From positions 24,615 to 88,614 of the IMG/VR virus record IMGVR_UViG_3300021437_000012: a DNA stretch of 64,000 nucleotides; one strand, given 5' to 3'. Of this stretch, positions 3,540-18,180 are shown piece after piece. The first letter of the stretch is position 1. Every line of letters starts with the position of its first letter. Both the position numbers and the translations under genes were made by a program. This DNA is from a virus. The notes beneath the pieces were generated by a model. It was not told where the DNA came from and searched no databases. It was given only the letters and a program-made list of their open reading frames with translations.

Positions 3540-3569
3540 GTCTTCCTCCTGGACTTAGAGCTTGCACGG

Positions 3570-3604
3570 CGGCGCGCTGAAGTAACTAAGGCGCGCCGTT
3601 TTTA
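3570..3604 (+). terminator. Intrinsic terminator after capsid gene
   Basis: CGGCGCGC/GCGCGCCG stem followed by T-tract. Confidence 0.7.
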
Positions 3605-3813
3605 TTTGGTTTGAATCCTACTTTTTTAGTTAGTCCTGGCTGTATAGCTAAGCTGCTTTCATAGAACCATTCTACTGTGCGCCTTCCTTCAATCCACCAC
3701 GTAATTTCGTAATATGGAGCCTGATTGTTTATTATCGAAATTGCGGTAACAGTGCCTTGAATCCTGCTATCTTCGATGTAAACCCTTGTGTCTAAAGGAA
3801 TTATCTGGATCAT
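3586..3813 (-). CDS. Small beta-rich hypothetical protein, counter-oriented
   Basis: AGGAG RBS before ATG 3813; SH3/YodC-like pattern (GTVTAISI..YEITWW..EWFYESSL). Confidence 0.55.
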   Translation of the reverse strand: MIQIIPLDTRVYIEDSRIQGTVTAISIINNQAPYYEITWWIEGRRTVEWFYESSLAIQPGLTKKVGFKPNKNGAP

Positions 3814-3834: not shown

Positions 3835-3863
3835 TTGACAACTGAGTTATGCAGGAGTATAGT
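3835..3863 (+). promoter_or_regulatory. Sigma70-type promoter for glycan island
   Basis: TTGACA-17 nt-TATAGT. Confidence 0.75.
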
Positions 3864-3872
3864 ATGGTTACG

Positions 3873-4586
3873 ATGAATGAGTCAACGCTAGTTTGTGTAA
3901 GCGGGTTTAATGATGGCGCACAAATGTTGCGCGAATGTGTACAATCCGCCAACGCACTTGGTTTTCATGTTCTGTATATGGACGGTGCATACCCGCTGTT
4001 CTTAGATGATCCCGACGAAGACGTGTGGACTTCAGACGAAGCCTTACAAAAAGCGCTAGTTGATCTTCACGTTGATGAAGGTGATCACGAATTTCGGTGG
4101 ACAAGCGAAGCTGATAAGAAAAATGAAGTTCTGCGTCAGGCCGAAACACTGCGCACACCTAGCGGTGGTTGGTACAAGTGGGCACTGTTTCTCGACGTAG
4201 ACGAAAGACTAGAGGGTACATACTACAATTTTACACCAGAGGACCACTACAAATTAGGTGATCCTACTGAGTTATGGTGGATCAACATGTATCGCTACGA
4301 TGTTCATTTACCCCATAATCCGCAAGGTTTCCCGATGCCGAGAATGTTGCGCTTGCATCCGTCCCTGCACTTCAAACCACCGCGTGATTACGACGTGTAT
4401 CGCGAGGAGAAACAAATCGCTTTCATGGACGGCGCTACTATACCGTCTTATTGCGAAGGACATTATGCGCTGTTAGATCCTGGCATTCTTCGTATTCGGC
4501 ACGAGCGCAATAAACGCACCGATGAGCGGCGCAATAAAGCGGGGCGTTATTATCAACGGCAACGTGGTGATGTGAATGTTAGATAA
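3873..4586 (+). CDS. GT-A/GT2-like glycosyltransferase
   Basis: WALFLDVDERL DxD motif; paralog of 14479-15189; start chosen by alignment to the paralog. Confidence 0.6.
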   Translation: MNESTLVCVSGFNDGAQMLRECVQSANALGFHVLYMDGAYPLFLDDPDEDVWTSDEALQKALVDLHVDEGDHEFRWTSEADKKNEVLRQAETLRTPSGGWYKWALFLDVDERLEGTYYNFTPEDHYKLGDPTELWWINMYRYDVHLPHNPQGFPMPRMLRLHPSLHFKPPRDYDVYREEKQIAFMDGATIPSYCEGHYALLDPGILRIRHERNKRTDERRNKAGRYYQRQRGDVNVR

Positions 4587-4938
4587 CCAACTTCAAGTAA
4601 CTAAGATGGGTTTTAAGAATGCTCGTAGCTACGAAGTTGGTGATCTTCCTTGGCTTGAAGATTTATTCGACTTAGCGAGGAAGCAGACGAACTTCTTACC
4701 TTATGCCCACAATTTTCCGGTCAAGACTTCGTGGAGCTTATCTGAGCTTGGGGCACATAACTTACTAACTAAAGACATAGTTAATGAGGTAGCTAACACA
4801 CTCGCGCGTGAAGAAGAGGACATGATTATCAATGGTGATCGTGGCGGACTCCTTGTGCGTAACTGGAAGATGCCTGAAATCAAATCCAATGGCAGCCTCA
4901 TCGGTAACTATTCCGTAGGATTTAGGAGCAACACATGA
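4576..4938 (+). CDS. Short protein resembling a fragment of the major capsid protein
   Basis: KTSWSLSEL...AREEEDMIINGD versus capsid RTSWSYEL...AYSEEDALINGD. Confidence 0.55.
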   Translation: MLDNQLQVTKMGFKNARSYEVGDLPWLEDLFDLARKQTNFLPYAHNFPVKTSWSLSELGAHNLLTKDIVNEVANTLAREEEDMIINGDRGGLLVRNWKMPEIKSNGSLIGNYSVGFRSNT

Positions 4939-5915
4939 AATTCCAAAAACAGAACATTCTCATTACTGGTGCGGGTGGTTTTCTTGGTTGGCATCTTTCT
5001 GAATACTTGCACGCGCAAGGTCACAACGTAACTGGTATCGATCTACACACTGCCAAGTATGCTCCTCATTCGTCTACTCAATTGTTAATTCGAGACGTAA
5101 GAAATCCTGGATGGGTGCCTGGAGCTAAATACGACGTAGTGTACGCGCTAGCAGCAGATATGGGCGGTATGGGGTACATCTCGCAACACTCCGCGGAGAT
5201 TCTTGCCAACAACCTTAGAGTGAATCTCAGTACAGTAGAGGCTGTACGCTTGCATAAAATTTCGCGCGTTGTGTTTGCATCTTCCGCGTGTGTCTACAAC
5301 GAATTGAAACAAGATGGGGCGGACTCCAAACCGCTCACTGAAGACGATGCGTACCCCGCACTGCCCGATACAGAATATGGTTGGGAGAAGCTAATCTCGG
5401 AACGTCTGTATCAAGCCTACGCAAAAGCTTACGGATTCACTGCGCATATCGTAAGGTTTCACAACGTCTTCGGACCTTACGGATCGTGGAATGATGGGCG
5501 TGAGAAAGCACCAGCCGCTATTTGTCGGAAAGTCGCGGAGCATAAAGCAAAACGTACTAAAGAGATTGAGGTTTGGGGTGATGGGCAGCAACGTCGGTCA
5601 TTTTTGTATGTGGGTGACTGGCTTAAGGGGTTGCAAAAACTTGTCGATGGTAACATTGTGGGGCCTATCAATCTTGGGTCTGCGGATGACGTGTCTATTG
5701 CGGAGTTAGTAGCTCAGGTGTGTGAAATTGCAGGTGTAAAAGATCCTGTGATTAAGTTCATCCCTGGACCGCAAGGTGTGCGAGCACGTAACTCTGACAA
5801 TACACTTATTAAGAAGTTAACGGAGTGGGAACCGCCTGCGAATACGTTGAATCGTGGGCTTAAGGTGTTGTACCCTTGGATTGAGGAGCAAGTATGGAAC
5901 GTGCGCAAGACTTAA
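4935..5915 (+). CDS. GDP-mannose 3,5-epimerase-like NAD-dependent epimerase
   Basis: TGAGGFLG, AADMGGMGYI, ASSACVY, YGWEK, GREKAPAAICRK, WGDG, RNSDNTLIK. Confidence 0.9.
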   Translation: MKFQKQNILITGAGGFLGWHLSEYLHAQGHNVTGIDLHTAKYAPHSSTQLLIRDVRNPGWVPGAKYDVVYALAADMGGMGYISQHSAEILANNLRVNLSTVEAVRLHKISRVVFASSACVYNELKQDGADSKPLTEDDAYPALPDTEYGWEKLISERLYQAYAKAYGFTAHIVRFHNVFGPYGSWNDGREKAPAAICRKVAEHKAKRTKEIEVWGDGQQRRSFLYVGDWLKGLQKLVDGNIVGPINLGSADDVSIAELVAQVCEIAGVKDPVIKFIPGPQGVRARNSDNTLIKKLTEWEPPANTLNRGLKVLYPWIEEQVWNVRKT

Positions 5916-6550
5916 CACATTCAGAGATTGCGTCTTTCGTTGGGCACGCTAGTCCACTGATTCTTGAAATCGGCGCTAACGATGGCGCTGATACTGCACA
6001 GTTTCTTGAACACTTCCAAGGTAGACCGCTTATCTACTGTTTCGAGTGTGATCCACGCGCGATTGATAAATTCAGAGTCCGCAATTTTTCACCCGAGCGC
6101 GTAATCCTCACTGAAATCGCACTCGCCTCAAAGTCCGGCACACACGAGTTTTACCAATCTGGTGGTACGCCCACTATGGATCGCTCGATTGATTGGGATA
6201 AGTCTGGCTCTTTATTTCGTCCTACTGGACATCTAGTCTATTCGCCTTGGTGTAAGTTTGATAGCAAAATTGAAGTGCCTACCATTACACTTGATGAATG
6301 GGCTGAAGAAAATATACCAAATGAGCCCATAATCGACTTTATTTGGATCGATACGCAGGGTGCCGAACTAGATATATTTCGTGGTGGTTTGCATACTCTA
6401 GCAAAGACACGTTTTGTTAAGACCGAATGCCACCGCACAATTATGTATGAAGGAGCACCAACTGAGGGAGATTTGCGCGGATTTTTTTATGAGTGGACCT
6501 ATATAGGACGTTACGCTGATGATCTTCTTTTTAGGAATGATGCAGTATGA
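5894..6550 (+). CDS. FkbM-family (NoeI-like) sugar O-methyltransferase
   Basis: LEIGANDG, FECDPR, DWDKSGSL, IDFIWIDTQGAE. Confidence 0.85.
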   Translation: MERAQDLTHSEIASFVGHASPLILEIGANDGADTAQFLEHFQGRPLIYCFECDPRAIDKFRVRNFSPERVILTEIALASKSGTHEFYQSGGTPTMDRSIDWDKSGSLFRPTGHLVYSPWCKFDSKIEVPTITLDEWAEENIPNEPIIDFIWIDTQGAELDIFRGGLHTLAKTRFVKTECHRTIMYEGAPTEGDLRGFFYEWTYIGRYADDLLFRNDAV

Positions 6551-7515
6551 CGAGTAAAGAGCTACGCGCATTACGAGACGTTACTAAAAATATCGAGGGT
6601 GTTACTGATTTATTTGATATAGCACTGCAAGAATTAGCAATTAAAGAGCAGATGAACGCAGATTTACGTGAAACATACGAAACCTTAGTTGACCAGCGTA
6701 ATCAAGCTGAACTTGAGCGCGCTAGTATTCAAGCTAGTTTTCGCGGAGTTGAGCGCGAACGTGATAATTCTCAGATTGCTCTTTTTGAGTCTCGTCGCGA
6801 ATTGTTTCAACATTATGGAGCTTCTGATGCTTCGTTAGTTACTCGCATATTTGGTGAACCTGGGTATTTGGCAATGGTACGTGCAGAAAAAGCCCATCTC
6901 GTTAGTTTGAAATTAAATTGGGATAATAAGTCTGCATTAGAGGTAGGTGCGGGAATTGGGGAGCATACATCATTTCTTTTAGATCGTAATTGTGTTGTAA
7001 CTACTTCCGATGGGCGGGAAGATAATACGGCAATCCTACAACGTCGTTGGGGACATCGTACACGAGTACGTAAATGGGATGTAGAGAATGTGCAGGACTA
7101 TGACGCTAGTCGATATGAAATTTTGCACGTGTACGGACTTCTTTATCATTTGAAAGAACCTGCGCTAGCAATTAAATTACTTAGTAGATTATGCACTAAT
7201 TTTATGGTACTTAGTACCTGTGTTCAATCAACTGATGGCGAATCTGAATTTATGTTGGCAGAAGACCCTGCTGATTTGCGTAATTCTGTAAATGGCTACG
7301 GAGTACGACCTTCACGTCAATGGGTATTTAACGAGCTTCTCTGCCATTTTCCTTATGCTTATTACACTACTACACAGCCAAATCATACGGATTACCCATT
7401 AGAATTTAAAACTCCAAAATTGGGACTTACTCGTGCTGTATTTGTCGCTTCACATACGTCGCTTAGTAATTCGTCACTTTCTACGTTAAAACCTGATGTG
7501 TATGAGCGCATATAA
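6547..7515 (+). CDS. Class I SAM methyltransferase with N-terminal coiled coil
   Basis: LEVGAGIG, YGLLYHL. Confidence 0.75.
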   Translation: MTSKELRALRDVTKNIEGVTDLFDIALQELAIKEQMNADLRETYETLVDQRNQAELERASIQASFRGVERERDNSQIALFESRRELFQHYGASDASLVTRIFGEPGYLAMVRAEKAHLVSLKLNWDNKSALEVGAGIGEHTSFLLDRNCVVTTSDGREDNTAILQRRWGHRTRVRKWDVENVQDYDASRYEILHVYGLLYHLKEPALAIKLLSRLCTNFMVLSTCVQSTDGESEFMLAEDPADLRNSVNGYGVRPSRQWVFNELLCHFPYAYYTTTQPNHTDYPLEFKTPKLGLTRAVFVASHTSLSNSSLSTLKPDVYERI

Positions 7516-8294
7516 TGCCTAAATTTGAGCTAGGGACGTTAGATACTTGGTACGTTAATCTTGATTCAAGGTTAGATCGTCGTGAGCATGTAGAGAATCA
7601 GTTAAAAAGAGTGGGTCTTCATGCACAACGGCAACGTGGTTATCTGCCCACTGAGTGGAACGGACCACAAGAAAAAATTCGGCGTATGTATGACCGCACT
7701 CCTGGTGCAATTGGCTGTCATATGAGTCAGACTGCAATTATTGCGCGTAGTCTTTTAACTCATCGCAATGTATTGGTATTAGAGGATGACGTTGTATTTT
7801 GTACTGATTTTATGGCGCGTATTAACTATATAGAAAATTTTCTTGACGGGTGTGAATGGGACATCTTTTGGCTGGGGGCTACTTTTCATTGTAATCCTCC
7901 GGTTTGGCACGCTATGGATGTATCAGATCCTTTGATGGCGCACATCGGACGCGATGTTGAGTTAACTGACGATCCCCGAATTCTGCGAACATATGGCATT
8001 TGGTCAACGTATGCGTACATTGTAAATGCAGATAGCGCGCATAAAATCTTGACTCTGTTTGACCAAAATCTCCATTTGTCAATCGGAATCGATTATTTAG
8101 CAATTATGTTGCAGCCCAAATTAAATACGTTCTGCTTTGTACCAGGGTGTGTAGTACAGTATGATAACCAAAGTAATATAGGCACTGGAGTTACAACGTT
8201 TTCTAACTTTAAAGCGCTTGGGCCTTACTGGTACGCAGACCGTATGACAGATTTTGACCCAGTTACTTTTAATTGGGCAGAGGCACGAGTATGA
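7515..8294 (+). CDS. Glycosyltransferase family 25
   Basis: YVNLDSRLDRR, GAIGCHMSQ, LVLEDD, TYAYIVN. Confidence 0.85.
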   Translation: MPKFELGTLDTWYVNLDSRLDRREHVENQLKRVGLHAQRQRGYLPTEWNGPQEKIRRMYDRTPGAIGCHMSQTAIIARSLLTHRNVLVLEDDVVFCTDFMARINYIENFLDGCEWDIFWLGATFHCNPPVWHAMDVSDPLMAHIGRDVELTDDPRILRTYGIWSTYAYIVNADSAHKILTLFDQNLHLSIGIDYLAIMLQPKLNTFCFVPGCVVQYDNQSNIGTGVTTFSNFKALGPYWYADRMTDFDPVTFNWAEARV

Positions 8295-9151
8295 AACGTG
8301 TTATCGTCTTAGTCGCTGATGATAACTATGTAGATCATGCTAAAGCTCTTGTTATGTGCTGTAAAAAGTATGGTAGTTGGATTGATGATTTTGCGTTTGT
8401 TTGCCCGTCAAATTCACGAGCGGCAGAGACGTTCTCACAAAAGGGGTTTAAGGTATGTCTTCGTGAAGCGGAGTCGTTCTTACAGAAATTTTATGTTTTT
8501 GATGATTTTTTTCGGCAGTGGGACCAAGTTCTATACATGGATTGTGACGTAATTGTACAGAGTGATCTATATAGACTTTTTAGTTTACTTGCTTCGTCTG
8601 AAAAGCCTATATTGATGGATACCGAAGACCTTACGACTCTCGAAACATTTTGGAGAGATGAGCACAAAATTCGCAATGCACCATTATATGCACGTATGCA
8701 ACTTGAATTCCCTCACATTACGCAGCGTACATTTAACTCTGCATTTATGTTGTTTCGCCCAAATGAGTTACCCGTAAATACTGTAAATAAATTGTTCGCA
8801 GTGCAGACATGGGTAAGTCCAGCTAATGTAATAAATTCTGAGAAGGATTCGTGTGGAATTTTGCGCGGGGGTGGTACTGACCAACAAATTATCAATCTTG
8901 TACTTTATTCTTATATAGCAGCTATTCCTAGTAAGTTCGTTTGTTATTGGGCTTTCGATGAAGGTGAATCTCGTGTTGTACCTTCGCGTGGATGGACTGG
9001 TACTGAAATTCCAGTAGCTTTACACTATTCGCGTTGGTACGCCCCTTGGATTGAGAAAGTACCCCACGCGGGAGCTTACATGGTGCATAGATTAGAGGAA
9101 TCCGCATACAATATTTATCAAGAAAATCTTAAGGACTTTGAAGCACTATAA
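8291..9151 (+). CDS. Glycosyltransferase family 8
   Basis: DDNY, VLYMDCDVIV, FNSAFML, DQQIIN, HY..PW. Confidence 0.8.
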   Translation: MKRVIVLVADDNYVDHAKALVMCCKKYGSWIDDFAFVCPSNSRAAETFSQKGFKVCLREAESFLQKFYVFDDFFRQWDQVLYMDCDVIVQSDLYRLFSLLASSEKPILMDTEDLTTLETFWRDEHKIRNAPLYARMQLEFPHITQRTFNSAFMLFRPNELPVNTVNKLFAVQTWVSPANVINSEKDSCGILRGGGTDQQIINLVLYSYIAAIPSKFVCYWAFDEGESRVVPSRGWTGTEIPVALHYSRWYAPWIEKVPHAGAYMVHRLEESAYNIYQENLKDFEAL

Positions 9152-9723
9152 TGGCGACTTTCGGTCTTGATTTACGTACTCGCCGCAGCCTAGTGGCCTC
9201 ACTTCCTCACAACGCTTGTGTTGCAGAAATAGGTGTACTAGCCGGGGACTTTTCTTCTGTTATTTTTACCGAAACCCATCCTACTGCGTTGTACTTAGTG
9301 GACTGCTGGCAGACACAAGATGCAGAGGTGTACGGACAAGACCCTGCTAGTGCAAATTCACAAGCGTACTTAGACGCTTTGTACAAAGAAGTATGTGCCA
9401 AATTTGCAAATAACCGGGAAGTAGTAGTAATACGAGATTTTTCTATTAAGGCTGCAATAAAATTTGCTAGTGAGTCTCTTGATTGGGTGTATATTGACGC
9501 AAATCATCTTCGTGTGCGTGAAGATATTGAAGCGTGGTGGCCCGCAGTAAAAAGTGGTGGATGGATTACAGGGCACGATTTTACTAATACGGTGGGTATC
9601 ACAGTAAAGACTGATGTTACAGCTTTTACTACTTCGCGTAATCTACCTCTATTTGTAACTACAGGTGAAGGTGGCGGTATATACGAAGTTAACTACCCAT
9701 CTTGGGCTTTTCAGAAACCGTGA
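9151..9723 (+). CDS. Class I SAM methyltransferase (Methyltransf_24-like)
   Basis: AEIGVLAG, LDWVYIDANH, GGWITGHD. Confidence 0.8.
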   Translation: MATFGLDLRTRRSLVASLPHNACVAEIGVLAGDFSSVIFTETHPTALYLVDCWQTQDAEVYGQDPASANSQAYLDALYKEVCAKFANNREVVVIRDFSIKAAIKFASESLDWVYIDANHLRVREDIEAWWPAVKSGGWITGHDFTNTVGITVKTDVTAFTTSRNLPLFVTTGEGGGIYEVNYPSWAFQKP

Positions 9724-9730
9724 GGTTGGT

Positions 9731-10345
9731 ATGAAATCTTTCAATGAAATTGGTGCATTTTATGGTACAGATAAAGCTGACATATCCCTACATGGTCACT
9801 TTGCTGGTAATCCTGGGCATAATTATATGCGGTATTATGAGCGTATGTTGGGTACTTACCGCGCAGATGAACTTACGATAGTTGAAATTGGTGTACAGTA
9901 CGGCTATTCATTACAAGCATGGGATGAAATTTTCCCTAACGCAAATGTGCACGGGATTGATAAAAGTCCTTTGTGTGCACAAGAGCATATGACACGAGCT
10001 AAGTTACATACTTTTGATGCAACTAATTTGGAGGAATGTACAGCGTTCTTTACTAAGCTCGGGCCTGTCGATGTTCTTATTGAGGACGCATCACACCAAA
10101 GTCAAGAGCAGGTGAACTTATTTCATGCCCTGTTTCGTTATGTTCGATCAGGCGGGTTCTACGTAATTGAAGACATTGGCTGCGGCTATCAAGAATACTA
10201 TGGGGGAGGACCGGACGGCGGTGTTACTATCCAAATGGTCCGCTCATTCATTGATGATATCCACAATGGGTGTAGTAAATCGAAAATTACGGATATAGCA
10301 GGAGTTCATCTTTTTCGTGATATAGCTTTTGTGGAGAAAGCATGA
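9731..10345 (+). CDS. Sugar O-methyltransferase (MycE/TylE-like)
   Basis: YGTDK..HNY..YE, VEIGV, IEDASH, GGFYVIED. Confidence 0.75.
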   Translation: MKSFNEIGAFYGTDKADISLHGHFAGNPGHNYMRYYERMLGTYRADELTIVEIGVQYGYSLQAWDEIFPNANVHGIDKSPLCAQEHMTRAKLHTFDATNLEECTAFFTKLGPVDVLIEDASHQSQEQVNLFHALFRYVRSGGFYVIEDIGCGYQEYYGGGPDGGVTIQMVRSFIDDIHNGCSKSKITDIAGVHLFRDIAFVEKA

Positions 10346-10968
10346 ATTGGATTGAGCGGCTGTACGAGATTAAGAACAAAGATCTGTATTCACAGAACGG
10401 AGAAGGACTGTTATTAGAACACATCTCTAATGCGTTAGGCTTTAACACTGGAACTATTGATGATATCGGCGGCGGGGATGGCTTGTATCTTAGTAATAGT
10501 AGGCATTTACAAAATCTAGGGTGGGACAGATACGTTATAGACCGCGAACGTGGACAAACTGTTACAGTAGAGAATATTCTTGATATACCATTATTTTTGT
10601 TTGAACGAAATACGGCTACAGTACTGTCTATTGATATTGACGGCAATGACTACTGGATACTTGATACAATCTTGCAACATCGTAAGCCGTCCATCATCGT
10701 TGCTGAGTTTAATGCTACATATACTAACTCTCGTACTATCGCGTATAATCCTGATCATGTATGGGCAGGGGATAGCTATTACGGATTTACTTTTGCCGCT
10801 GGGTGCAAACTTGCTGAACGATTCGGATACCGTGTTATTTTTCAAGTCGCAAATATGAACATGATCATGGTACGTAGCGAATTAGTAACAGTGCGTGTAC
10901 CTTCAATTACAGTCAAGCAAAATCACTATTTCAAAATGTCTGATCGCACTGATTGGGTAGACGTATGA
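10342..10968 (+). CDS. Putative methyltransferase (FkbM-related)
   Basis: YSQNGE, LSIDIDGNDYWI, IVAEFN. Confidence 0.65.
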   Translation: MNWIERLYEIKNKDLYSQNGEGLLLEHISNALGFNTGTIDDIGGGDGLYLSNSRHLQNLGWDRYVIDRERGQTVTVENILDIPLFLFERNTATVLSIDIDGNDYWILDTILQHRKPSIIVAEFNATYTNSRTIAYNPDHVWAGDSYYGFTFAAGCKLAERFGYRVIFQVANMNMIMVRSELVTVRVPSITVKQNHYFKMSDRTDWVDV

Positions 10969-11630
10969 AAATAGCTTTGCTTACGTCTTATTTTGGTGTG
11001 TGTCCCTACGAATTTTTGTTTATGGGGGCCGCTACAGAATACTGCACTCGACACAGCTACAATTTAATAAGTATACGCGGGCAGTATGATGTTGATCAGA
11101 ATTTTAATTTTGGTATACCGTTTAAGACAAGCTACGGCGGCGAACCTTGGATATGGTGGTATAAACAATCGTTAATTTCTACGTATTTGCCGCTATACGA
11201 TTACGTTCTATGGATTGATATGGATTGCTTGCTGCTTAATATGAGTCTATCAATTCAGACTCTTATAGAAGAATTCGGAGATAACGATTTGCTTGTAGCA
11301 GACCATCGTGGTATTCCTGATACGGGCCTTTTATTGTTTCGCAATTCAGTGGCCACGCGAGAATGGGTTAGATATTGGATTGAGTACGGCTACACTAAAT
11401 TTGCCACCGCAGCGTGTGTTCCGCATAACAATCATGCTGCTTTTGAGTCTATGTATGCTACTGGCGCACTACCTGCAAATTCTAAAGTCGTAGTGTCGCC
11501 ACAATTTGGTGTTGGGCATGGATTTATGGATGGTCAACTAAGTACAACATTAGCTATGCATGTTTATGGAACGCCAATAGAGGAGAAAGTACAGATTATG
11601 GCTGCTTTCCAGAATCGAATACGCCGATGA
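10965..11630 (+). CDS. Glycosyltransferase, GT34 (GMA12/MNN10)-like
   Basis: WYK..YDYVLWIDMDCLLLN, DTGLLLFRN. Confidence 0.7.
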   Translation: MKIALLTSYFGVCPYEFLFMGAATEYCTRHSYNLISIRGQYDVDQNFNFGIPFKTSYGGEPWIWWYKQSLISTYLPLYDYVLWIDMDCLLLNMSLSIQTLIEEFGDNDLLVADHRGIPDTGLLLFRNSVATREWVRYWIEYGYTKFATAACVPHNNHAAFESMYATGALPANSKVVVSPQFGVGHGFMDGQLSTTLAMHVYGTPIEEKVQIMAAFQNRIRR

Positions 11631-12148
11631 TGCGTTCTGGAGTAGAATTTGGGTTTTCCAAGGTTGGGGAAGACGTGTGGGTATCAGATAAGGCAAGCAT
11701 CTATAGCGCATCAAAAATCAGTATTGGGGACCATGTACGTATAGACGATTTTTGTATTCTCAGCGCGGGTGAGGGTGGTATAGCATTAGGGAACTTTATT
11801 CATATTGCTTGTTACTCGTCTTTAATTGGTCATGCTTTGATCCAGTTGCACGACTACGCAAACATTGCCGCGCGCACGTCTATTTTAAGTTCGTCCGATG
11901 ATTTTTCAGGACGCCACTTAATAGGCCCGACAGTCGAAGAAAAGTATCGTAAAGTTACTCATAGAGAAGTAACTATCGGAGCATATTCTGTTATTGGTGC
12001 GGGGTGTGTGGTTTTACCAGGGTCACATATCGGTGCAAATGTTGCTGTTGGAGCTATGAGTTTGGTACGTGGGTACTTAGAAAATGATAGTATTTATGTA
12101 GGTGTGCCAATAAAAAGGATCAAAGGCCGTGAGCGAAGGTGTCTATAA
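11627..12148 (+). CDS. Hexapeptide-repeat sugar acyltransferase (VioB-like)
   Basis: IGDHVRIDDFCILS, SSDDFSG, left-handed beta-helix repeats, GVP. Confidence 0.85.
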   Translation: MMRSGVEFGFSKVGEDVWVSDKASIYSASKISIGDHVRIDDFCILSAGEGGIALGNFIHIACYSSLIGHALIQLHDYANIAARTSILSSSDDFSGRHLIGPTVEEKYRKVTHREVTIGAYSVIGAGCVVLPGSHIGANVAVGAMSLVRGYLENDSIYVGVPIKRIKGRERRCL

Positions 12149-12755
12149 AATTACTGAAATGTTCGAGCAATCTCTGTGTGAGTATACAGGGGCGCCGTAT
12201 GCTGTTACCTTTGATTCTTGTAGTAGTGCGTTATTTACAGCCTTATCATACCTAAAGTTAAATGGGGAGTTTATTCGCATCCCATCGCATACGTACATGA
12301 GTGTTCCTTGTGCAGTAAAACAAGCTGGGGGACGGGTTCAATTCGTAGAAAGTAGCCCTATTTTAGTTGGAGCGTATAGGTTATTGCCCACTAACATCAT
12401 AGATAGTGCTCTACGGTTTACGGCAGACATGTACGAATTTGGAACAGAAACGTGTTTGTCATTTACAGGCCCATTCAAGCATCTTAAACTTAGTAAGGCG
12501 GGTGCCATTTTAACGGACAGTCCGTGTAAAGCTGAATGGTATCGTAAATTTCGGTTTAACGGGCGTAACGAATGTTCGTATCATACTGATAACTTTACAA
12601 TGTTGGGATGGAATTTCTACTTGTTACCTGAAATTGCTGCGCGTGGTGTTTTGCTTATGCGACAATTCTATAATCTTGATGGTACAAAAAAACACATGCA
12701 GGATATTGCACTGCCGTATCCTGACCTTAGCAAATTCGAGGTATACACAACATGA
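12129..12755 (+). CDS. Short DegT/DnrJ/EryC1/StrS-family aminotransferase-like protein
   Basis: FEQSLCEYTGAPYAV..SCSSAL, IIDSA, LSF...K; only 208 aa. Confidence 0.75.
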   Translation: MSEGVYKITEMFEQSLCEYTGAPYAVTFDSCSSALFTALSYLKLNGEFIRIPSHTYMSVPCAVKQAGGRVQFVESSPILVGAYRLLPTNIIDSALRFTADMYEFGTETCLSFTGPFKHLKLSKAGAILTDSPCKAEWYRKFRFNGRNECSYHTDNFTMLGWNFYLLPEIAARGVLLMRQFYNLDGTKKHMQDIALPYPDLSKFEVYTT

Positions 12756-13543
12756 TCACCTTCGCAGTCACAGCATACAACGAATCTCTCCGCGGACGCA
12801 CTCCGTTTCAGTGGATTCGGGAGTGTATTACGCCAGCATTATCGCATAACTATGTTAGCGAGATTTTAGTGTACGACGACGGCTCTGACGATTACCCACA
12901 GTTATACCATACACTGAAAAATTACCCTAAAATTAATATGCACTTCGGAGAACAGAATCTCGGCGTTTTCGGAGCTAAACTAGAATCCGTGTTTCGCACG
13001 GAAAATGAATGGGTGATGATGGCAGATTCTGACAACGTGTTTGACTCTGCATATCTTGATCGATTGGAACGTATGGATAGACTAAGTGATCGTACATTTG
13101 TCTGTCCTAGCTTTGGACTTCCGATGTTAGACTATAGGCACTGCGTAGGTATGTGGTCTATGGATAACATAGGTCGATTGTCACGTATGAAAGCGTTTGA
13201 CTGCGTTGTGAATACAGGCAATCAATTTGTGAATCGTGAAACTTTCATGACGCTATTCGCACCCTACCGTGGACCTCGTTTCGATCTGAAGTTACCTGAT
13301 TACCTAAACGTAGGTGATCGTTCCAATATTCGCTGGCGTAAGATCTACGACGCATGTGATAGCTTGATTATCAATTCCATCGCGTTAAAAGCTGATGTTT
13401 CACTGTGGGTCGCACCTGAGTTAACCTATACTCATGGCTCACTAATGCCCGAGCACAAAAACATCATGCCGTCTTCGTGGGAACAGGCACCGCCTGAAAA
13501 AGAACAGTTATCCAAGATTCTCATTCAGGAGTTACTTAGGTGA
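12752..13543 (+). CDS. Glycosyltransferase family 2
   Basis: TAYNE, EILVYDDGSDD, NLG, MADSDN. Confidence 0.8.
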   Translation: MITFAVTAYNESLRGRTPFQWIRECITPALSHNYVSEILVYDDGSDDYPQLYHTLKNYPKINMHFGEQNLGVFGAKLESVFRTENEWVMMADSDNVFDSAYLDRLERMDRLSDRTFVCPSFGLPMLDYRHCVGMWSMDNIGRLSRMKAFDCVVNTGNQFVNRETFMTLFAPYRGPRFDLKLPDYLNVGDRSNIRWRKIYDACDSLIINSIALKADVSLWVAPELTYTHGSLMPEHKNIMPSSWEQAPPEKEQLSKILIQELLR

Positions 13544-14436
13544 GCGTCGTACAGATGACCAACTTCGGTCAAATGGGGCGATGGGGTAATCAGATATTTC
13601 AGTACGCTTTCTTGAATTTATATGCTGAAAGGTACGGTGCAACTGTTGAAATTCCAGCGTGGGCTGGTGATGCTATTTATGGGGTGCCTCGGCAGTCACC
13701 TACAGAAAAACTCCCGCTTTACTATAATCGCAAAGGTGAACGGCATTACGAATATCCGCCGATAGGCAATGAAGTTGTAGATCACGATTATTGTGGATAT
13801 GGGCAGTTCCATACGTCATGGTACGCACTACATAAGGACAAATTTCGCAGCTACTTCCAACCAAATCAATCAATTGTGCGCCGGCTTGCTCCTGCATTGA
13901 GCAGACTACAGCGGCATAATACGACTGTGGGATTACACATTAGGCGGGGAGATTATGGCCGTTCGATTTTCTACATAACTCTTATTGCGTGGTACTTGCA
14001 GCTTCTTTCACATATCTGGCCATTGTTGAACGATCCTATTTTATTTATTGCAACGGAAGACTTGAGTTTAACCACGGAGTTCAACGCTTATCTCCCGGTT
14101 ACAACGCAATCATTGGGCGTTGATCTTAACAGTGCACCTTTGATGCACTACAATTATTTACCTCATGACCTACAGACTCACGAGCTTGTGCAGATGGATT
14201 TCTTCCCCGACTTTTACTTTTTGTCACACTGCGATATTGTCATTGCGCCAAATTCTACATTCAGTTTTGCTGCGGCGATGATGAATCCACACCTTCAGAA
14301 GTTTTACCGATCTGAGTTAGAAACTCAGCGTTTTGTGGAGTTAGATGTATGGAATTCACGTCCATTGACCCATGTTAATGTCAATGAATTTCCCGAAGTG
14401 CCCGGCGTTCGTCTCGACTCTAATCCGTGGTGGTAG
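13540..14436 (+). CDS. Alpha-1,2-fucosyltransferase-like (GT11)
   Basis: GRWGNQIFQYA, GLHIRRGDY, IAPNSTFSFAAA. Confidence 0.85.
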   Translation: MSVVQMTNFGQMGRWGNQIFQYAFLNLYAERYGATVEIPAWAGDAIYGVPRQSPTEKLPLYYNRKGERHYEYPPIGNEVVDHDYCGYGQFHTSWYALHKDKFRSYFQPNQSIVRRLAPALSRLQRHNTTVGLHIRRGDYGRSIFYITLIAWYLQLLSHIWPLLNDPILFIATEDLSLTTEFNAYLPVTTQSLGVDLNSAPLMHYNYLPHDLQTHELVQMDFFPDFYFLSHCDIVIAPNSTFSFAAAMMNPHLQKFYRSELETQRFVELDVWNSRPLTHVNVNEFPEVPGVRLDSNPWW

Positions 14437-14439
14437 GGC

Positions 14440-14468
14440 TTGACATGTTTATAGACTCCTGGTATAGT
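14440..14468 (+). promoter_or_regulatory. Sigma70-type promoter
   Basis: TTGACA-17 nt-(TG)TATAGT. Confidence 0.75.
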
Positions 14469-14478
14469 TTCGCCCAAC

Positions 14479-15189
14479 ATGAGCTTGGCACCTACCGTTC
14501 TCGTGTGCGTCTCAGGGTTTAGGGATACGGCGCTACTGCGCGGGTGTGTGCGGTCGGCCAACGCACTAGGATGGCCTGTGCTGTACGCTGATGGCGCTTA
14601 TAGGACGTTTCTTGACCGTCCCGACTCTGACCCTTGGGTGACGTCATCAGATGAGCTACGCGAGGCTACAGAAGGGTCTGATGTAGCCTTTATGCCAGCA
14701 TTGCAAAAACAACCGTGGCCCGATGAGCCAACAAAGTTGAATGCAATTTTAAATCATGTTTCAGCGCACTACGATATTTTTTATCGTCCAACTTGGTTAG
14801 TATTTCTTGACTGTGATGAACGGCTAGAGTGGGTAAATCCGCGTGAAGAAGTTACCGGCTTTTTATACGCGCTACTTTCTATGCCTGAAATTAAGTGGGC
14901 TACCATTAAAACGTATCAGCCAAAATCTGGTGTCATTTCGTCCGTTGCCCGGTTTTTTAAGTTCGATGAGCATATTCGTGAGAATTTAGCGTTTAGTTCT
15001 ATTCCGCCGTTTCCGTTGTTATGGGATGGGGCAGCGTTGTGTGCGCCATGTGAATCATCCTACACCGGACTTCGGACAAATTGCGTTAATATACCATATA
15101 GTCTTCTAAGAATTCGGCATGAGTGTGGAAGACAGACTGCGGAACGTAAAGCTCAACTAGCGAGGTATCGTGCAATTATACGTGTTTGA
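14479..15189 (+). CDS. GT-A/GT2-like glycosyltransferase, paralog of 3873-4586
   Basis: LVCVSGF..CVRSANALG..VLYADGAY..FLDCDERLE..LRIRHE. Confidence 0.6.
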   Translation: MSLAPTVLVCVSGFRDTALLRGCVRSANALGWPVLYADGAYRTFLDRPDSDPWVTSSDELREATEGSDVAFMPALQKQPWPDEPTKLNAILNHVSAHYDIFYRPTWLVFLDCDERLEWVNPREEVTGFLYALLSMPEIKWATIKTYQPKSGVISSVARFFKFDEHIRENLAFSSIPPFPLLWDGAALCAPCESSYTGLRTNCVNIPYSLLRIRHECGRQTAERKAQLARYRAIIRV

Positions 15190-15748
15190 TGATGTACTTC
15201 AGATTTACCGCAAATGGCGGCGAGATGAGCTTCAAGGAATTTATCTACAGTATGCAAGTAATGTAGATGCTTTATACAACTTAGTTTGGTGCAAAGGGTA
15301 TGGGTATTCACCTGTTGTAGATGCAGTACAACGAGATACGCCTGTGGGTGACGCATTAACGGAGAATTCAGTGCTGACATTTGCGGTCGCTTATGGTGTA
15401 GTGGACTCATTATGGCTAAATGGAACTACTTGCCAATTAGTTACTAAGGCGCCCTATGTATATAAAGTTCCACTTAATTTGGAACAACAAGCTGGGCTAC
15501 CTTCGTTAAAATCAGGATGGTATGCTTTATTGGATTGGAGTTATTTCGCACCAAAGTGGGAAACAGACGATTCTATTGATAAGTCTATGGATCTTTTCTT
15601 TTCGTTCAACCATGGTGTACCAGAAACAATCTACTTACTAACTCCATGGCATCGTTGCAGTTCAAATTTAGCAAAATTCGCACAGTTCACTTCTCGTTTA
15701 AAAACAATGTATGGCGTAGACACCATCAACTGTCGAGGGATAAAATAA
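15170..15748 (+). CDS. Hypothetical protein
   Basis: 192-aa ORF packed in the operon. Confidence 0.5.
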   Translation: MQLYVFDDVLQIYRKWRRDELQGIYLQYASNVDALYNLVWCKGYGYSPVVDAVQRDTPVGDALTENSVLTFAVAYGVVDSLWLNGTTCQLVTKAPYVYKVPLNLEQQAGLPSLKSGWYALLDWSYFAPKWETDDSIDKSMDLFFSFNHGVPETIYLLTPWHRCSSNLAKFAQFTSRLKTMYGVDTINCRGIK

Positions 15749-15751
15749 ATC

Positions 15752-16447
15752 ATGTTACCGTACACACCCACTATTACTCAAATCCTTGATGTAATTAATA
15801 AGCCATTTCTTGTTAAATGGAAAGTGGAAAACGCGCAGGCTATAACTGCAAAGTTAGCTGCTGAAATGTATAGTGACGCATCATTTACAGATCATATAAA
15901 GTTTCATCAAGCCTTAACTAATAAAGTCACTGCTATTACACAACAATCGCAAACAGACATTTCATCTCGCGGCACGTCTATTCACGATTTAATTAGCTAC
16001 GCATTACTAACTAAAATGAAAAAAACTGATGGGTTAGTAAAACCAGAACCTACGGATTCAACTAGAATTGCTTGGGAAAATTGGAGAACTTGGGCTAACA
16101 AGGTAAAACCAAAACCTCTTTATATTGAGCATCGTATTCAAAGCGACGTACATAAGTATAGAGGTAAGTTGGACGCCATAATACAGCTTGGTAAGATAGT
16201 AACGGTCGTTGATTGGAAGACTGGTAAAGCAGTGTATCCTGAAGCTATTATGCAAGTGGCCGCTTATGCACGTGCAGCAGCAGAGATGAAATTAGTTAAA
16301 CCTGGGTATGAATGTGCTGTAATTCGTATTTCTAAAGATGACCCTCGTGATGAGGTTGAAGTGGTTAAGGTAGATAAGGCGGAGGAAGTAGCAGCATTCG
16401 GTGCTTTTTTGTCTGCACGGCAACTGTGGGGCTACTTAAATGCCTGA
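15752..16447 (+). CDS. PD-(D/E)XK nuclease (RecB/Cas4-like fold)
   Basis: RGTSIH, YRGKLDAI, VVDWKTG, QVAAYA. Confidence 0.8.
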   Translation: MLPYTPTITQILDVINKPFLVKWKVENAQAITAKLAAEMYSDASFTDHIKFHQALTNKVTAITQQSQTDISSRGTSIHDLISYALLTKMKKTDGLVKPEPTDSTRIAWENWRTWANKVKPKPLYIEHRIQSDVHKYRGKLDAIIQLGKIVTVVDWKTGKAVYPEAIMQVAAYARAAAEMKLVKPGYECAVIRISKDDPRDEVEVVKVDKAEEVAAFGAFLSARQLWGYLNA

Positions 16448-17423
16448 ATTAAAGTGTGTAGTTCTTGCAAATAAGCAGTATGAAACCTATATGTCCAACG
16501 AAGGTTGGCAGTTACAGGAGGGATTGCAGTTAGCAGGGTGGAAACTACGTGGTTATGGGTATGAAGATAATTCGGTTGACGTGCAAAGCATTATAGATCA
16601 AGACCATCCTGATGTAGTGATGATTCAAGATGTACGGGATTGGGCTAATGGGGATTCTCCCGTTAAATTCTGTAATACACAAATCTTAAGAGAACACAGC
16701 AGTATCTTCAAAGTGATGGTACTAAAAGACCCTTGGTATTGTTCAGATTTTCAATCTATGTACATGGGATTGATGGGTGTTAAGGCGTGTGTGGTTTATT
16801 ACCAGCAAGATACAGTACGCCAACATACTACATGGCTACCACAAAATATGTCACTTATTCGTACATACCATAGCGTTGATCCAACACAAGCGGCTAATGC
16901 GTATAATGTCAATTTACGTAGAGAAGATGGTTTAGTTTCTGGGACTTTGGAGCCGTATGAAACCTATCCCATGCGTAACTGGTTTGTGCGTAATTGTGCT
17001 GAATTAGATTTACGTGTACTACCTCATCCGCAGTATTACGTACAAGCCAAATCAGCAACTAACGCCTATCTACGTATTCTTAGTCAATTTAAAGTACATG
17101 TAGCTACTGCTAGTATTTACCAATGTGCGTTACGTAAGATAATCGAGTCAATTGCAACTGGGTGCATTCCAATCACAAATTTATCTAGTAATGATAAATT
17201 GCCTATGATTGATTCTGCTATTTGGCGCGCCCGATTTGATCAAGATGTGTATAGAATGCACAATGTACTACAATTGGCTAAAGAAAACTGGCGTAAAGAC
17301 CGTGCACTTCACTACGCACGTCTTGCATGGGAACACTATTCTTACATAAATCAAGGTAGACTTTTGTCCGAAGAAATTAAGAGGCAATACTATGCGCATT
17401 TTCGGCATCGTAACGTGTGTTGA
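16440..17423 (+). CDS. Putative GT-B glycosyltransferase
   Basis: HSVDP, Y..ILSQFKV..RKIIESIATGCIPITN (CgeB/Glyco_trans_1_2-like C-terminus). Confidence 0.55.
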   Translation: MPELKCVVLANKQYETYMSNEGWQLQEGLQLAGWKLRGYGYEDNSVDVQSIIDQDHPDVVMIQDVRDWANGDSPVKFCNTQILREHSSIFKVMVLKDPWYCSDFQSMYMGLMGVKACVVYYQQDTVRQHTTWLPQNMSLIRTYHSVDPTQAANAYNVNLRREDGLVSGTLEPYETYPMRNWFVRNCAELDLRVLPHPQYYVQAKSATNAYLRILSQFKVHVATASIYQCALRKIIESIATGCIPITNLSSNDKLPMIDSAIWRARFDQDVYRMHNVLQLAKENWRKDRALHYARLAWEHYSYINQGRLLSEEIKRQYYAHFRHRNVC

Positions 17424-18072
17424 CTATTCTGGTTTTCTTGAAAAGAGTTTATCTATATGGCAAGCAGGACTAGATAAGTTGGTCGTGGTAACTTCGCAAG
17501 AAGATAACCGCACTCAGCAACTTTTAGATTCTCCTGAATATTCGCAAGTTATCTTGCATCCTACTAATGCGTTTTGGCAAGACGGTGCATTATTCAACAA
17601 AGCTGCGGCTCTAGAAGAAGCTTATATAACACTGCGAACTTCAGCGGATGAATGGGTTTTATTTTTTGATGCTGATGTTATTCCACCTACTGGGTGGCGG
17701 CAGGATATTGAAGAAATTGGACAACTTGAATTGGGTTGCATATATGGTGCTATTCGTCGTACTGAAGACTATAGGCTGATACGTGATACGGAACTAGCTG
17801 GATTTTTTCAGCTATGGCATCGTCGTGATCCTGTTGTTCAGACTTTGCCATTATTAGGTTCATGGCATAATGCTTCTGGTTACGATTCTGCATTTGCCAC
17901 TCGGTGGCCTAAAACTAACCAACGTTGTGCACCAATTAGCTTAATACACCAAGGAAACGTCGGTAGAAATTGGTGCGGGGTAGGCCATGATTCTGACATG
18001 GGCGAAGTTTTTGCAAATCGACGACACAAAGGCGGATTTCTTCACGAGCGACTGGACAATATAGGGCGTTAG
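17392..18072 (+). CDS. Putative GT-A glycosyltransferase
   Basis: TCVDYSGFL, FNKAAA, WVLFFDADV, GFFQLW. Confidence 0.65.
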   Translation: MRIFGIVTCVDYSGFLEKSLSIWQAGLDKLVVVTSQEDNRTQQLLDSPEYSQVILHPTNAFWQDGALFNKAAALEEAYITLRTSADEWVLFFDADVIPPTGWRQDIEEIGQLELGCIYGAIRRTEDYRLIRDTELAGFFQLWHRRDPVVQTLPLLGSWHNASGYDSAFATRWPKTNQRCAPISLIHQGNVGRNWCGVGHDSDMGEVFANRRHKGGFLHERLDNIGR

Positions 18073-18086: not shown

Positions 18087-18180
18087 TGCCTAGATCCTCT
18101 AGGCACGTCAGTTTCTCCTCTGTATAGGTGCATCGTCGTACCCATTAACTCGGACCCACTATGACGATGCACCGTTTTTT
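18087..18180 (+). ncRNA. Candidate small regulatory RNA with anti-SD seed
   Basis: 5' hairpin TGCCTAGA/TCTAGGCA, single-stranded CGTCAGTTTCTCCTCTGTATA, 3' terminator; promoter-like sequence upstream. Confidence 0.5.
18127..18180 (+). terminator. Intrinsic terminator
   Basis: GGTGCATCGTCGTA/TATGACGATGCACC 14-bp stem (one G-U) plus TTTTTT. Confidence 0.7.

Follow-up and report, generated by a model that had tools for sequence, protein, structure and literature searches.

A glycan-synthesis island of 20 co-oriented genes was found next to the major capsid protein gene of an uncultured freshwater phage, and the best reading of the encoded enzymes is that they glycosylate the phage's own virion proteins in the cytoplasm, the major capsid protein being the probable acceptor. 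Judged from gene content and gene order, we consider this reading moderately likely. The island was studied in a window of 64,000 nucleotides from an 88.6-kb record (IMGVR_UViG_3300021437_000012), which is estimated to be 81% complete.

Organization of the glycan-synthesis island

The island occupies positions 3835–18072 of the window on the (+) strand, opening with a promoter-like site and closing with the stop codon of the last gene, and takes up about a sixth (~16%) of the recovered phage genome. Most of its genes overlap (17 of the 19 junctions), and no ORF contains an internal stop. Catalytic motifs are present: the DxD motif is intact in six proteins (GT8, GT34-like, GT2, both GmaR-like paralogs, and the product of ORF 17392–18072), as are the motifs EDD of GT25 and HIRRGD of GT11. 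The genes appear to be functional.

A preliminary description of this DNA had reported a gene run here with about nine glycosyltransferases, five methyltransferases, an epimerase, an acyltransferase, and an aminotransferase. The run was recovered with its 20 genes, and Pfam together with profile and structure matches reproduced the count (Table 1). The nine glycosyltransferases comprise five recognized by Pfam, two GmaR-like GT-A paralogs, one CgeB-like GT-B enzyme, and one weak GT-A match; two of the five methyltransferases fall under the Pfam cut-off. The remaining genes encode an Fcl-like epimerase/reductase, an acetyltransferase, a mini-DegT protein, a PD-(D/E)XK exonuclease, and two products without a functional call. 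The exonuclease (15752–16447) and the ORFs 4576–4938 and 15170–15748 were absent from the earlier list.

Table 1. Features of the island and its flanks (positions in the window).
Feature	Position	Strand	Evidence
Left anchor, HK97-type major capsid protein, 561 aa	1854..3539	+	PF05065 37.6 bits, PF25209; 91 homologs
Intrinsic terminator-like hairpin 3' of capsid gene	3568..3606	+	fold -21.2 kcal/mol
Promoter-like site P1, TTGACA-N17-TATAGT	3835..3863	+	11/12 consensus positions; ~10 nt upstream of ATG 3873
GmaR-like GT-A glycosyltransferase, paralog 1	3849..4586	+	likely start 3873; DxD motif LDVDE
120-aa ORF, weakly like capsid residues 311-366	4576..4938	+	BLASTP E 7e-5; hhalign probability 54%
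NAD-dependent nucleotide-sugar epimerase/reductase, nearest GDP-L-fucose synthase	4935..5915	+	PF01370 140 bits; NF047922 106 bits (under cut-off)
FkbM-family methyltransferase	5894..6550	+	PF05050 74.7 bits; TIGR01444
Class I SAM methyltransferase-like protein	6547..7515	+	PF13489 (Methyltransf_23) 26.5 bits vs cut-off 27
GT25 glycosyltransferase	7515..8294	+	PF01755 40.3 bits
GT8 glycosyltransferase	8273..9151	+	PF01501 36.1 bits; DxD motif YMDCD
Methyltransf_24 methyltransferase	9151..9723	+	PF13578 47.6 bits
Methyltransf_24 methyltransferase	9665..10345	+	PF13578 32.5 bits
Weakly FkbM-like methyltransferase	10342..10968	+	PF05050 18.8 bits vs cut-off 22.7
GT34-like glycosyltransferase	10953..11630	+	PF05637 28.1 bits; DxD motif IDMDC
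Hexapeptide-repeat acetyltransferase, WbbJ/WcaF-like, O-acetyltransferase type	11627..12148	+	PF00132 43.3 bits
Mini-DegT, PLP-enzyme-like, 208-209 aa	12129..12755	+	PF01041 64.3 bits
GT2 glycosyltransferase	12752..13543	+	PF00535 42.1 bits
GT11 (fucosyltransferase family) glycosyltransferase	13540..14436	+	PF01531 27.8 bits; HIRRGD motif
Promoter-like site P2, TTGACA-N17-TATAGT	14440..14468	+	10 nt upstream of ATG 14479
GmaR-like GT-A glycosyltransferase, paralog 2	14479..15189	+	DxD motif LDCDE
192-aa ORF	15170..15748	+	no Pfam or PHROG match; single-sequence AlphaFold2 model poor, pLDDT 44
PD-(D/E)XK exonuclease, not glycan enzyme	15752..16447	+	PF12705; phrog_298 E 7e-22
GT-B glycosyltransferase, CgeB/YkvP-like (Glyco_trans_1_2)	16440..17423	+	ESM Atlas feature score 0.97-0.98, structure TM 0.80-0.84
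Probable GT-A glycosyltransferase, motif FFDAD	17392..18072	+	weak signals throughout; 17 homologs without Pfam domain
Intrinsic terminator-like hairpin ending island, 14-bp stem then U6	18127..18180	+	inside fold of 18060-18185
Right anchor, head completion protein	18187..18813	+	PF24163 27.8 bits; homolog in 33 relatives

The genes form two modules (3849–14436 and 14479–18072), each starting with a consensus promoter ~10 nt upstream of the ATG of a GmaR-like glycosyltransferase; they may serve two acceptors or build two different glycans. Promoters and terminators were called by consensus match or RNA fold only. Four sites of the P1/P2 class occur in the window, against 0.29 expected, and two promoters of this sigma-70-like class lie in the replication region. 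The hairpin behind the capsid gene has an 11-bp GC-rich stem followed by UUUUUAUU, and the 126-nt fold around the second hairpin (18060–18185) as a whole reaches -38.9 kcal/mol (z -3.7). As in moron-type cassettes, the island is bracketed by its own promoter-like sites (3835, 14440) and terminator-like hairpins (3568–3606, 18127–18180), which suggests an autonomous cassette rather than mere membership in the late operon. Since the promoters are of the class found in the replication region, expression need not be late; both modules would be transcribed by host RNA polymerase.

All island proteins were predicted to be soluble (maximum 19-residue hydropathy ≤1.56). Pfam domains of an initiating polyprenyl-phosphate transferase, flippase, polymerase, or ABC permease were not detected in the 81% complete record. 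The lack of a flippase, polymerase, or ABC transporter, already reported for the island, holds across all 88.6 kb, where each ORF has at most two predicted transmembrane (TM) segments.

The capsid junction and the GmaR-like family

The proposed insertion between capsid and head-tail genes was corroborated in 33 capsid relatives, in which the gap between the same two anchors is 240–4986 bp long (median 714), compared with 14.6 kb here. The wider gaps among the relatives likewise contain glycosyltransferases, and the cassettes at this slot form a graded series. Locus L051 has a single GmaR-like glycosyltransferase between the capsid and head completion genes; in L011, a GmaR-like enzyme, a GT2, a methyltransferase, and another GT2 precede the connector; L029 contains a GmaR-like enzyme, a 965-aa triple-GT2 protein, and an epimerase; and L077 has a GT2-TPR-GT4 fusion. 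The junction is probably a recurrent hot spot for insertion.

The two GmaR-like proteins of the island are paralogous (32% identity, E 2e-28). Searched against solved structures, a 40-sequence profile of their family matched the glycosyltransferase domain of GmaR (E 1.1e-14), SunS (7.8e-8), and a ThuS-like chain (2.6e-6), whereas a chain resembling wall-teichoic-acid enzymes (5tze) gave an E-value of just 1e-3; E-value rank among GT2 enzymes is, however, no proof of acceptor type. The GmaR match spans profile positions 3–178 of 200, with D116, D118, and E119 invariant. All three names denote protein or peptide glycosyltransferases, and GmaR transfers GlcNAc onto flagellin (PMC9638930). The TPR substrate-binding domain is absent from both island proteins, which consist of a single domain (236–245 aa); TPR fusions were seen only in relatives (L077) and in Atlas structural neighbours.

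The family contains 3592 clusters at 50% identity (E ≤ 1e-3) and was near-absent from bacterial genomes in one pattern-limited scan; two members used as queries found no match among 50,697 sequenced phage records. Among 76 IMG/VR loci fetched with this family, 68 were assessable, and in 35 of these the glycosyltransferase starts -100 to +700 bp after a same-strand capsid gene. Eight of ten upstream ORFs tested had a capsid fold by Pfam (PF05065, Phage_capsid_4, or Linocin_M18); these capsids represent several lineages, some of them missed by the first capsid profile. Such synteny is guilt by association. We tentatively propose, as a possibility that we do not favour strongly, that the stand-alone GmaR-like GT-A family may serve environmental tailed phages generally as a capsid O-glycosyltransferase, seeding an exchangeable, modular glycan cassette at the capsid/connector junction; the present phage would be an extreme case, with two methylated, acetylated particle glycans from two promoter-led modules.

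Proposed role and alternative explanations

If the enzymes act on the virion, the Fcl-like reductase/epimerase, mini-DegT, and acetyltransferase would tailor host nucleotide sugars, and each GmaR-like enzyme would attach the first sugar to Ser/Thr of a folded virion protein. The GT25, GT8, GT34-like, GT2, GT11, CgeB-like GT-B, and last GT-A enzymes would extend the chain, and the methyltransferases and acetyltransferase would cap it; the resulting coat would give the particle protection or stability, or change its adhesion. Cytoplasmic glycan synthesis on virion proteins had been suggested in the preliminary description. The solubility of the proteins, the kinship with GmaR and SunS, and the capsid synteny speak for it, but the searches for an acceptor found none: the capsid protein has no C-terminal extension, its end aligning with those of relatives without glycosyltransferases, and Ser/Thr-rich tracts are absent from the ORFs of the genome except for a mild one in a collagen-like fibre.

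A rather unlikely alternative is that, during infection, the enzymes act from the cytoplasmic side to modify a host polymer (LPS/LOS core, O-antigen, capsule, or wall teichoic acid), the altered glycan being carried out by host exporters (MsbA, TarGH, Wzx) and stopping superinfection by the same or other phages. GT25, GT8, and GT11 are typical of LPS/LOS core and O-antigen synthesis, and host glycan modification, already the alternative in the preliminary description, stays in consideration because GT25 and GT8 are classic LPS-core families, whose enzymes act at the cytoplasmic face and need no phage-encoded exporter. The acetyltransferase is nearest to the LPS/colanic-acid O-acetyltransferases WbbJ and WcaF, and promoters of the replication-region class would permit early expression. 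The endolysin (GH108 plus PG_binding_3) and a tail protein with a beta-helix presumably indicate a Gram-negative host with LPS or surface polysaccharide. Prophage-encoded TarP and the LPS gene clusters of cyanophages are examples of soluble phage glycosyltransferases acting on host polymers. A role at the host surface, however, leaves unexplained why the leading glycosyltransferase family adjoins capsid genes in many unrelated phages, and the best solved relatives of this family act on proteins or peptides. Neither an initiating polyprenyl-phosphate transferase nor a membrane protein is encoded in the 81% complete record, lysogenic conversion is unlikely since neither an integrase nor a resolvase was found, and 14 kb would be a costly investment in a transient surface change during a lytic cycle.

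Decoration of modified genome bases against restriction, as in T4 and 5hmC-glycan phages, is very improbable here, even though DNA modification is described as a frequent role of phage glycosyltransferases (bioRxiv 10.1101/2023.12.21.572611) and a PD-(D/E)XK nuclease lies within the island. No enzyme making hydroxymethyl-pyrimidine or another acceptor base was found: C5-cytosine methyltransferase (PF00145) and thymidylate-synthase/dCMP-hydroxymethylase (PF00303) are absent from the 88.6-kb record, although at 81% completeness this does not prove the absence of base-modification genes, and Tet/JBP (PF12851) gave no match in a search whose control was uninformative. In addition, the glycosyltransferases of the island belong to families of the polysaccharide or protein type. 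A similar cluster with the same mini-DegT is present in the cultured Flavobacterium phage immuto, whose DNA was reported to contain only fdPreQ1 besides canonical dA, dC, and dT (bioRxiv 10.1101/2023.04.13.536721).

Mis-assembly of a host polysaccharide locus onto phage DNA can be considered extremely improbable. The GC content is 0.52 in the capsid region and 0.41–0.47 in the island; however, the latter matches the values of the tail genes downstream and of most of the phage genome (0.41–0.45), and the island genes share their orientation with both flanks. Chimeric assembly, named earlier as a possible objection, was contradicted by an independent 65-kb Logan contig that joins island and flanks, covering window positions 1–20000 at a flat depth of 21 with zero differences, though the run may be the source sample. 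Two more freshwater runs from other samples with other study codes contain at least 99% identical pieces of the capsid flank and island; one (X2) extends over the downstream flank as well (30 of 30 bins with depth), and the other (X3) has no depth past ~17.3 kb. Relatives also carry smaller cassettes in the same slot.

Comparison with known systems

To our knowledge, experimental demonstration of virion glycosylation by a phage's own enzymes is limited to a few actinobacteriophages (mycobacteriophages), with two to four enzymes. There it alters antibody recognition. In the sources cited here, O-methyltransferase and glycosyltransferase genes of mycobacteriophages, among them Che8, Corndog, and Myrna, modify capsid and tail tube (Freeman et al. 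2023, Cell Host Microbe, PMC10527164, as described in PMC11600133 and PMC12619734). The island resembles these systems in that soluble glycosyltransferases and an O-methyltransferase are phage-encoded in or near the structural (head) genes; according to the same sources, cytoplasmic decoration of capsid and tail tube by the mycobacteriophage enzymes has been either proposed or demonstrated. Corndog genes 35–38, flanked by gene 34 on one side and by the capsid maturation protease on the other and annotated in the record as hypothetical proteins, are given as an O-methyltransferase and three glycosyltransferases in PMC11600133; hmmsearch and phmmer found no match between gp35–38 and the GmaR-like profile or the island proteins. 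The systems differ in gene number (2–4 versus 20), in host (Actinobacteria versus a possibly Gram-negative host), and in the described attachment of mycobacteriophage glycans to C-terminal extensions of capsid and tube proteins, which the capsid protein studied here lacks.

With GmaR, the flagellin O-GlcNAc transferase of Listeria monocytogenes (PDB 22ao), the phage proteins share a GT-A domain of ~175 residues and the DxD motif; unlike it, they are stand-alone proteins of 200–245 aa that lack its antirepressor domain and its TPR domain, the presumed site of protein-substrate binding. SunS and ThuS (PDB 7msp, 7msn, 7msk) are glycocin S/O-glycosyltransferases that, like GmaR, act on polypeptides in the cytoplasm; the C-terminal peptide-binding domains of SunS are missing from the phage proteins.

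Large polysaccharide-type enzyme sets also occur in phage genomes as cyanophage LPS/O-antigen-type clusters and seroconverting prophage glycosyltransferases; we know of none tied to a capsid gene. Seroconverting systems include membrane proteins of the GtrA/GtrB/Gtr type, which are absent from the present record (at most two TM segments per ORF). Nor does the 88.6-kb record, at 81% completeness, encode an exporter-type membrane protein such as a Wzx/Wzy- or ABC-transporter-dependent polysaccharide locus would contain. In the chlorovirus PBCV-1 and giant viruses, the major capsid protein carries complex methylated glycans that are made in the cytoplasm by multiple virus-encoded enzymes, including GT-A enzymes and sugar methyltransferases as in the island; however, the hosts are eukaryotic and the double-jelly-roll capsids unrelated. 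ORF 17392–18072 showed weak similarity to PBCV-1 A64R (E 0.6).

New here are the two promoter-led modules, the GmaR-like first genes, the terminator brackets, and the family-wide capsid synteny. If virion glycosylation is confirmed and the leading family marks capsid glycosylation across many capsid lineages, glycan coats would form a layer of the phage surface that is widespread, modular, and quick to evolve, with bearing on particle stability, adsorption to particles or mucus, grazing, host defence, and phage therapy. With a general capsid role of the GmaR-like family, virion glycosylation would be a common natural phenomenon and not a peculiarity of mycobacteriophages, and a GmaR-like gene directly 3' of the capsid gene would then be a simple sequence marker for such phages. 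For protein glyco-engineering, the island provides a compact set of soluble enzymes that needs no exporter.

The 11-kb glycosyltransferase run carried by Flavobacterium phage vB_FspM_immuto (MW353176, genes 87–101) likewise encodes a methyltransferase and an epimerase, besides an acetyltransferase-like "pilin glycosylation protein" and the same mini-DegT, which is 59% identical; a PD-(D/E)XK nuclease lies at the edge of the run. It is located away from the capsid gene of a 160-kb myovirus, only the mini-DegT and epimerase are detectably common to both clusters, and we found no published function for it. The mini-DegT protein is about half the size of a normal DegT, Lys117 and Asp92 are invariant in an alignment of 17 family members, and the conserved family includes thousands of clusters at 60–65% identity.

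Gene content and layout of the island

The run of glycan-synthesis genes placed by the preliminary description between the capsid and head-tail genes was confirmed, and its enzyme inventory was reproduced by Pfam, NCBIfam, ESM Atlas, paralogy and weak GT-A signals. The interval from the capsid gene to the head-completion gene is filled by 20 ORFs on the plus strand, with overlaps of 1–59 nt at 17 of the 19 junctions. Eleven ORFs exceeded the Pfam cut-offs, two more were methyltransferase-like just below them, and four ORFs without a Pfam match were also glycosyltransferase-like. The earlier inventory had not included two ORFs of unknown function and an exonuclease of the PD-(D/E)XK type. The nearest NCBIfam model for the epimerase was GDP-L-fucose synthase, with a score far under the equivalog cut-off, and the hexapeptide protein had WbbJ and WcaF, both O-acetyltransferases, as its nearest matches. 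The search of 50,697 phage records returned matches to the GT25 enzyme from three huge uncultured phages only. All island proteins were predicted to be soluble, and no ORF with more than two predicted membrane segments was found in the whole record.

The two GmaR-like GT-A glycosyltransferases are paralogs that share an invariant D-x-D-E motif. The GT-B enzyme is of the CgeB/YkvP type, as judged by feature and structure matches in ESM Atlas. The last island ORF gave weak GT-A signals only: a Pfam match to Glyco_tranf_2_4 (E 0.011), an hhalign match to the paralog family (E 4e-5) and weak PDB matches. Most of the latter were to GT-A enzymes or other enzymes related to them that use nucleotide sugars, among them A64R, the capsid glycosyltransferase of the chlorovirus PBCV-1. 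A phmmer search of this ORF and the GT-B enzyme against PDB sequences gave no match. Single-sequence AlphaFold2 models were unusable, with a pLDDT of 32 for the last ORF and 44 for the ORF at 15170–15748. The exonuclease gene lies within glycan module B; another nuclease of this kind edges the glycan cluster of Flavobacterium phage immuto (L188, 5274–6215).

The protein listed as an aminotransferase (mini-DegT) resembles PseC and LegC in NCBIfam at the N-terminus only; relative to PseC, the C-terminal domain is missing, as are ~50 residues from the middle of the protein. Its family, with members of ~209 aa at 60–65% identity, comprises at least 6968 clusters (90% identity clustering) and is also represented in immuto and in huge uncultured phages. 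Lys117, in the SFxGPxKHL motif, and Asp92 were invariant across 17 aligned members. The gene is not a broken one.

In 5' to 3' order, the island consists of a putative terminator, P1, the 15 genes of module A, P2, the 5 genes of module B and a second putative terminator. P1 and P2 were the top two promoter-like sites in 19 kb. The window contains four sites that match TTGACA-N17-TATAGT with at most one mismatch, all of the form TTGACA-N17-TATA(G/A/C)T, where 0.29 would be expected. Since P1 and P2 end ~10 nt before an ATG, the mRNAs of both units are probably near-leaderless at the start. The consensus matches would make the island an autonomous, moron-like cassette. Such promoters were mostly missing upstream of the GT genes of relatives.

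Features of the island and of the rest of the window
Feature	Position	Characteristics
Prohead protease/scaffold gene	in window	
Major capsid gene	1854–3539	
Hairpin	3568–3606	11 bp, GC-rich, then U-run; directly 3' of capsid stop codon
Promoter-like site P1	3835–3863	exact TTGACA-N17-TATAGT; ends ~10 nt 5' of ATG 3873, which aligns with GmaR-like paralog start
GmaR-like paralog	3849–4586	first gene of module A
ORF of 120 aa	4576–4938	
Mini-DegT gene	12129–12755	208 aa
Promoter-like site P2	14440–14468	exact TTGACA-N17-TATAGT; ends ~10 nt 5' of ATG 14479, which aligns with GmaR-like paralog start
GmaR-like paralog	14479–15189	first gene of module B
PD-(D/E)XK exonuclease gene	15752–16447	
GT-B gene	16440–17423	
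Last island ORF	17392–18072	
Hairpin	18127–18180	14 bp with U6; closes the island
Head completion gene	18187–18813	
Tail tube gene	20102–21199	
Tape measure gene	in window	
Caspase-like peptidase C14 and GH108 + PG_binding_3 endolysin genes	42789–44197	peptidase 281 aa (E 3.5e-21), its gene directly 5' of endolysin gene
Promoter-like site	48980–49008	minus strand, replication region
Promoter-like site	54310–54338	minus strand, replication region

The insertion slot and integrity of the assembly

A 15-sequence capsid alignment was used to retrieve 80 viral loci, 33 of which contained both anchor genes. In these, the gap between the capsid and head-completion genes was 240–4986 bp (median 714), versus 14.6 kb here, which bears out the placement of the island as an insertion between capsid and head-tail genes. 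The closest capsid relatives, P0002–P0004, shared 43–48% identity; their genomic contexts were recovered by neither of two scans of metagenome contigs. Viral scans with the capsid protein alone or with the two GmaR-like paralogs gave no match.

The runs containing the phage are freshwater metagenomes. A 65-kb Logan contig, the run of which may be the source sample, covers window positions 1–20000 at flat depth and with zero differences. In addition, two other freshwater runs, X2 and X3, which are separate samples with different study codes, contained pieces of the island and of its capsid flank with an identity of at least 99%; the downstream flank was covered in X2 but not in X3. In GC content, the island (0.41–0.47) resembles the tail genes and the greater part of the phage genome. 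Thus, chimeric assembly with a host locus, which the preliminary description had named as a finding that would refute its reading, is unlikely in view of the contig, the two runs and the matching GC.

The same slot holds no GT in some relatives (gaps of 240–400 bp), one GmaR-like GT in L051, about four genes in L011 and about 6 kb in L029. The present phage, with 14 kb, has the largest cassette load among the relatives examined. This graded series at one position points to an exchangeable cassette site. The 120-aa ORF of the island has weak similarity to residues 311–366 of the phage's own capsid protein (EED-INGD motif) and may perhaps be a capsid-gene relic left by cassette exchange.

Association of GmaR-like glycosyltransferases with capsid genes

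Among 1.84 billion representative proteins searched with a profile, 3592 clusters matched this family of ~200-aa proteins at E ≤ 1e-3; its ESM Atlas neighbors were mostly viral. A tblastn search of 50,697 phage records with the GmaR-like proteins and the GT-B enzyme gave no match. Comparison of a 40-member family profile with the PDB identified the GmaR glycosyltransferase domain (22ao, E 1.1e-14), SunS (7msp, E 7.8e-8), a ThuS-like chain (7msk, E 2.6e-6) and a glycosyl transferase (5tze, E 1e-3), which we take to be the wall-teichoic-acid enzyme TarS. Glycocin peptides are the substrates of SunS-type enzymes. The N-terminal domain of GmaR (~180 residues) adds GlcNAc to flagellin (PMC9638930). 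Thus, the nearest characterized relatives of the family work in the cytoplasm, with polypeptides as substrates. Unlike GmaR, the two GmaR-like proteins of the island have no TPR domain, which weakens the case for virion proteins as their target.

In the capsid relatives L005, L011, L029 and L051, the capsid gene is directly followed by a GmaR-like member. Fused GT2 forms occupied this position in L029 and L077/L078 and were found 3.5 kb downstream of the capsid gene in L031/L036. In an independent test, 76 viral loci were fetched with the GT family itself (alignment subset A6). The GT started at −100 to +700 bp after a same-strand capsid gene in 35 of the 68 loci with enough upstream sequence; for a randomly placed gene, this position would be expected, by a rough estimate, in only a few percent of phages. 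Ten upstream ORFs that the first capsid profile had missed were tested, and eight of them encode proteins with a capsid fold (PF05065, Phage_capsid_4 or encapsulin-like Linocin_M18) from other lineages. This synteny, the strongest argument available, suggests that the family acts on the capsid or on something assembled with it. In locus L124, a GmaR-like GT gene follows that of an encapsulin-like Linocin_M18 shell protein, not of a canonical phage capsid protein (3994–4863, 4890–5531).

Proposed function and genome setting

On balance, we lean towards the view that the island is a two-module, self-promoted cassette that would glycosylate virion proteins, most likely the capsid. The glycan on virion proteins envisaged in the preliminary description is in part supported by the capsid-gene synteny and the polypeptide-acting relatives; however, its acceptor was not found. 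The capsid protein showed no C-terminal extension, and neither serine-repeat or mucin-like nor Ser/Thr-rich acceptor tracts were detected in the phage proteins, apart from a mild one in a collagen-like fibre. The serious rival is that the enzymes alter host surface glycans. GT25 and GT8 are of the LPS-core type and would need no phage-encoded exporter, the acetyltransferase is of the LPS/colanic-acid type, and the island promoters could work early. In addition, the endolysin, of the GH108/PG_binding_3 type, and a tail protein with a beta-helix suggest a Gram-negative host with a surface polysaccharide. However, modification of the host surface leaves the link to the capsid gene unexplained. 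Glycosylation of DNA by the island glycosyltransferases is disfavored. Searches of the 88.6-kb record (81% complete) for C5-methyltransferase, ThyA/dCMP-hydroxymethylase and Tet/JBP domains were negative, although the Tet control was uninformative. Cultured phage immuto has a comparable glycan cluster and the same mini-DegT, and its DNA is reported to contain only fdPreQ1 and canonical bases (bioRxiv 10.1101/2023.04.13.536721).

If virion proteins are the target, the cassette is an unusually large version of a known kind. The virion glycosylation genes of mycobacteriophage Corndog are unrelated to the island; therefore, the present system would be an analogue of the mycobacteriophage system, not a member of it.

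The source phage is tailed, with a head of the HK97 type. The window corresponds to bases 24615–88614 of the IMG/VR record, which is classed as linear with an estimated completeness of 81%; the part upstream encodes the portal, a DNA polymerase A-UDG fusion and SNF2 and UvrD helicases. A search for integrase and resolvase genes found none, and a WhiB gene was absent. Scanning of genome contigs with A6 yielded three loci only, two of them in Actinomycetota MAGs, and gave no usable host call. In L082, the portal gene is immediately followed by a gene for a type IB topoisomerase, and DNA polymerase A has an N-terminal uracil-DNA-glycosylase-superfamily domain (17680–19044 and 3493–5901, respectively, in genome coordinates). 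The GC content is 0.52–0.62 at window positions 30000–39500, 0.63–0.68 at 61000–64000 and 0.41–0.45 elsewhere. The first of these high-GC patches spans tail-fibre genes (collagen repeats; beta-helix), several with hydrophobic N-termini.
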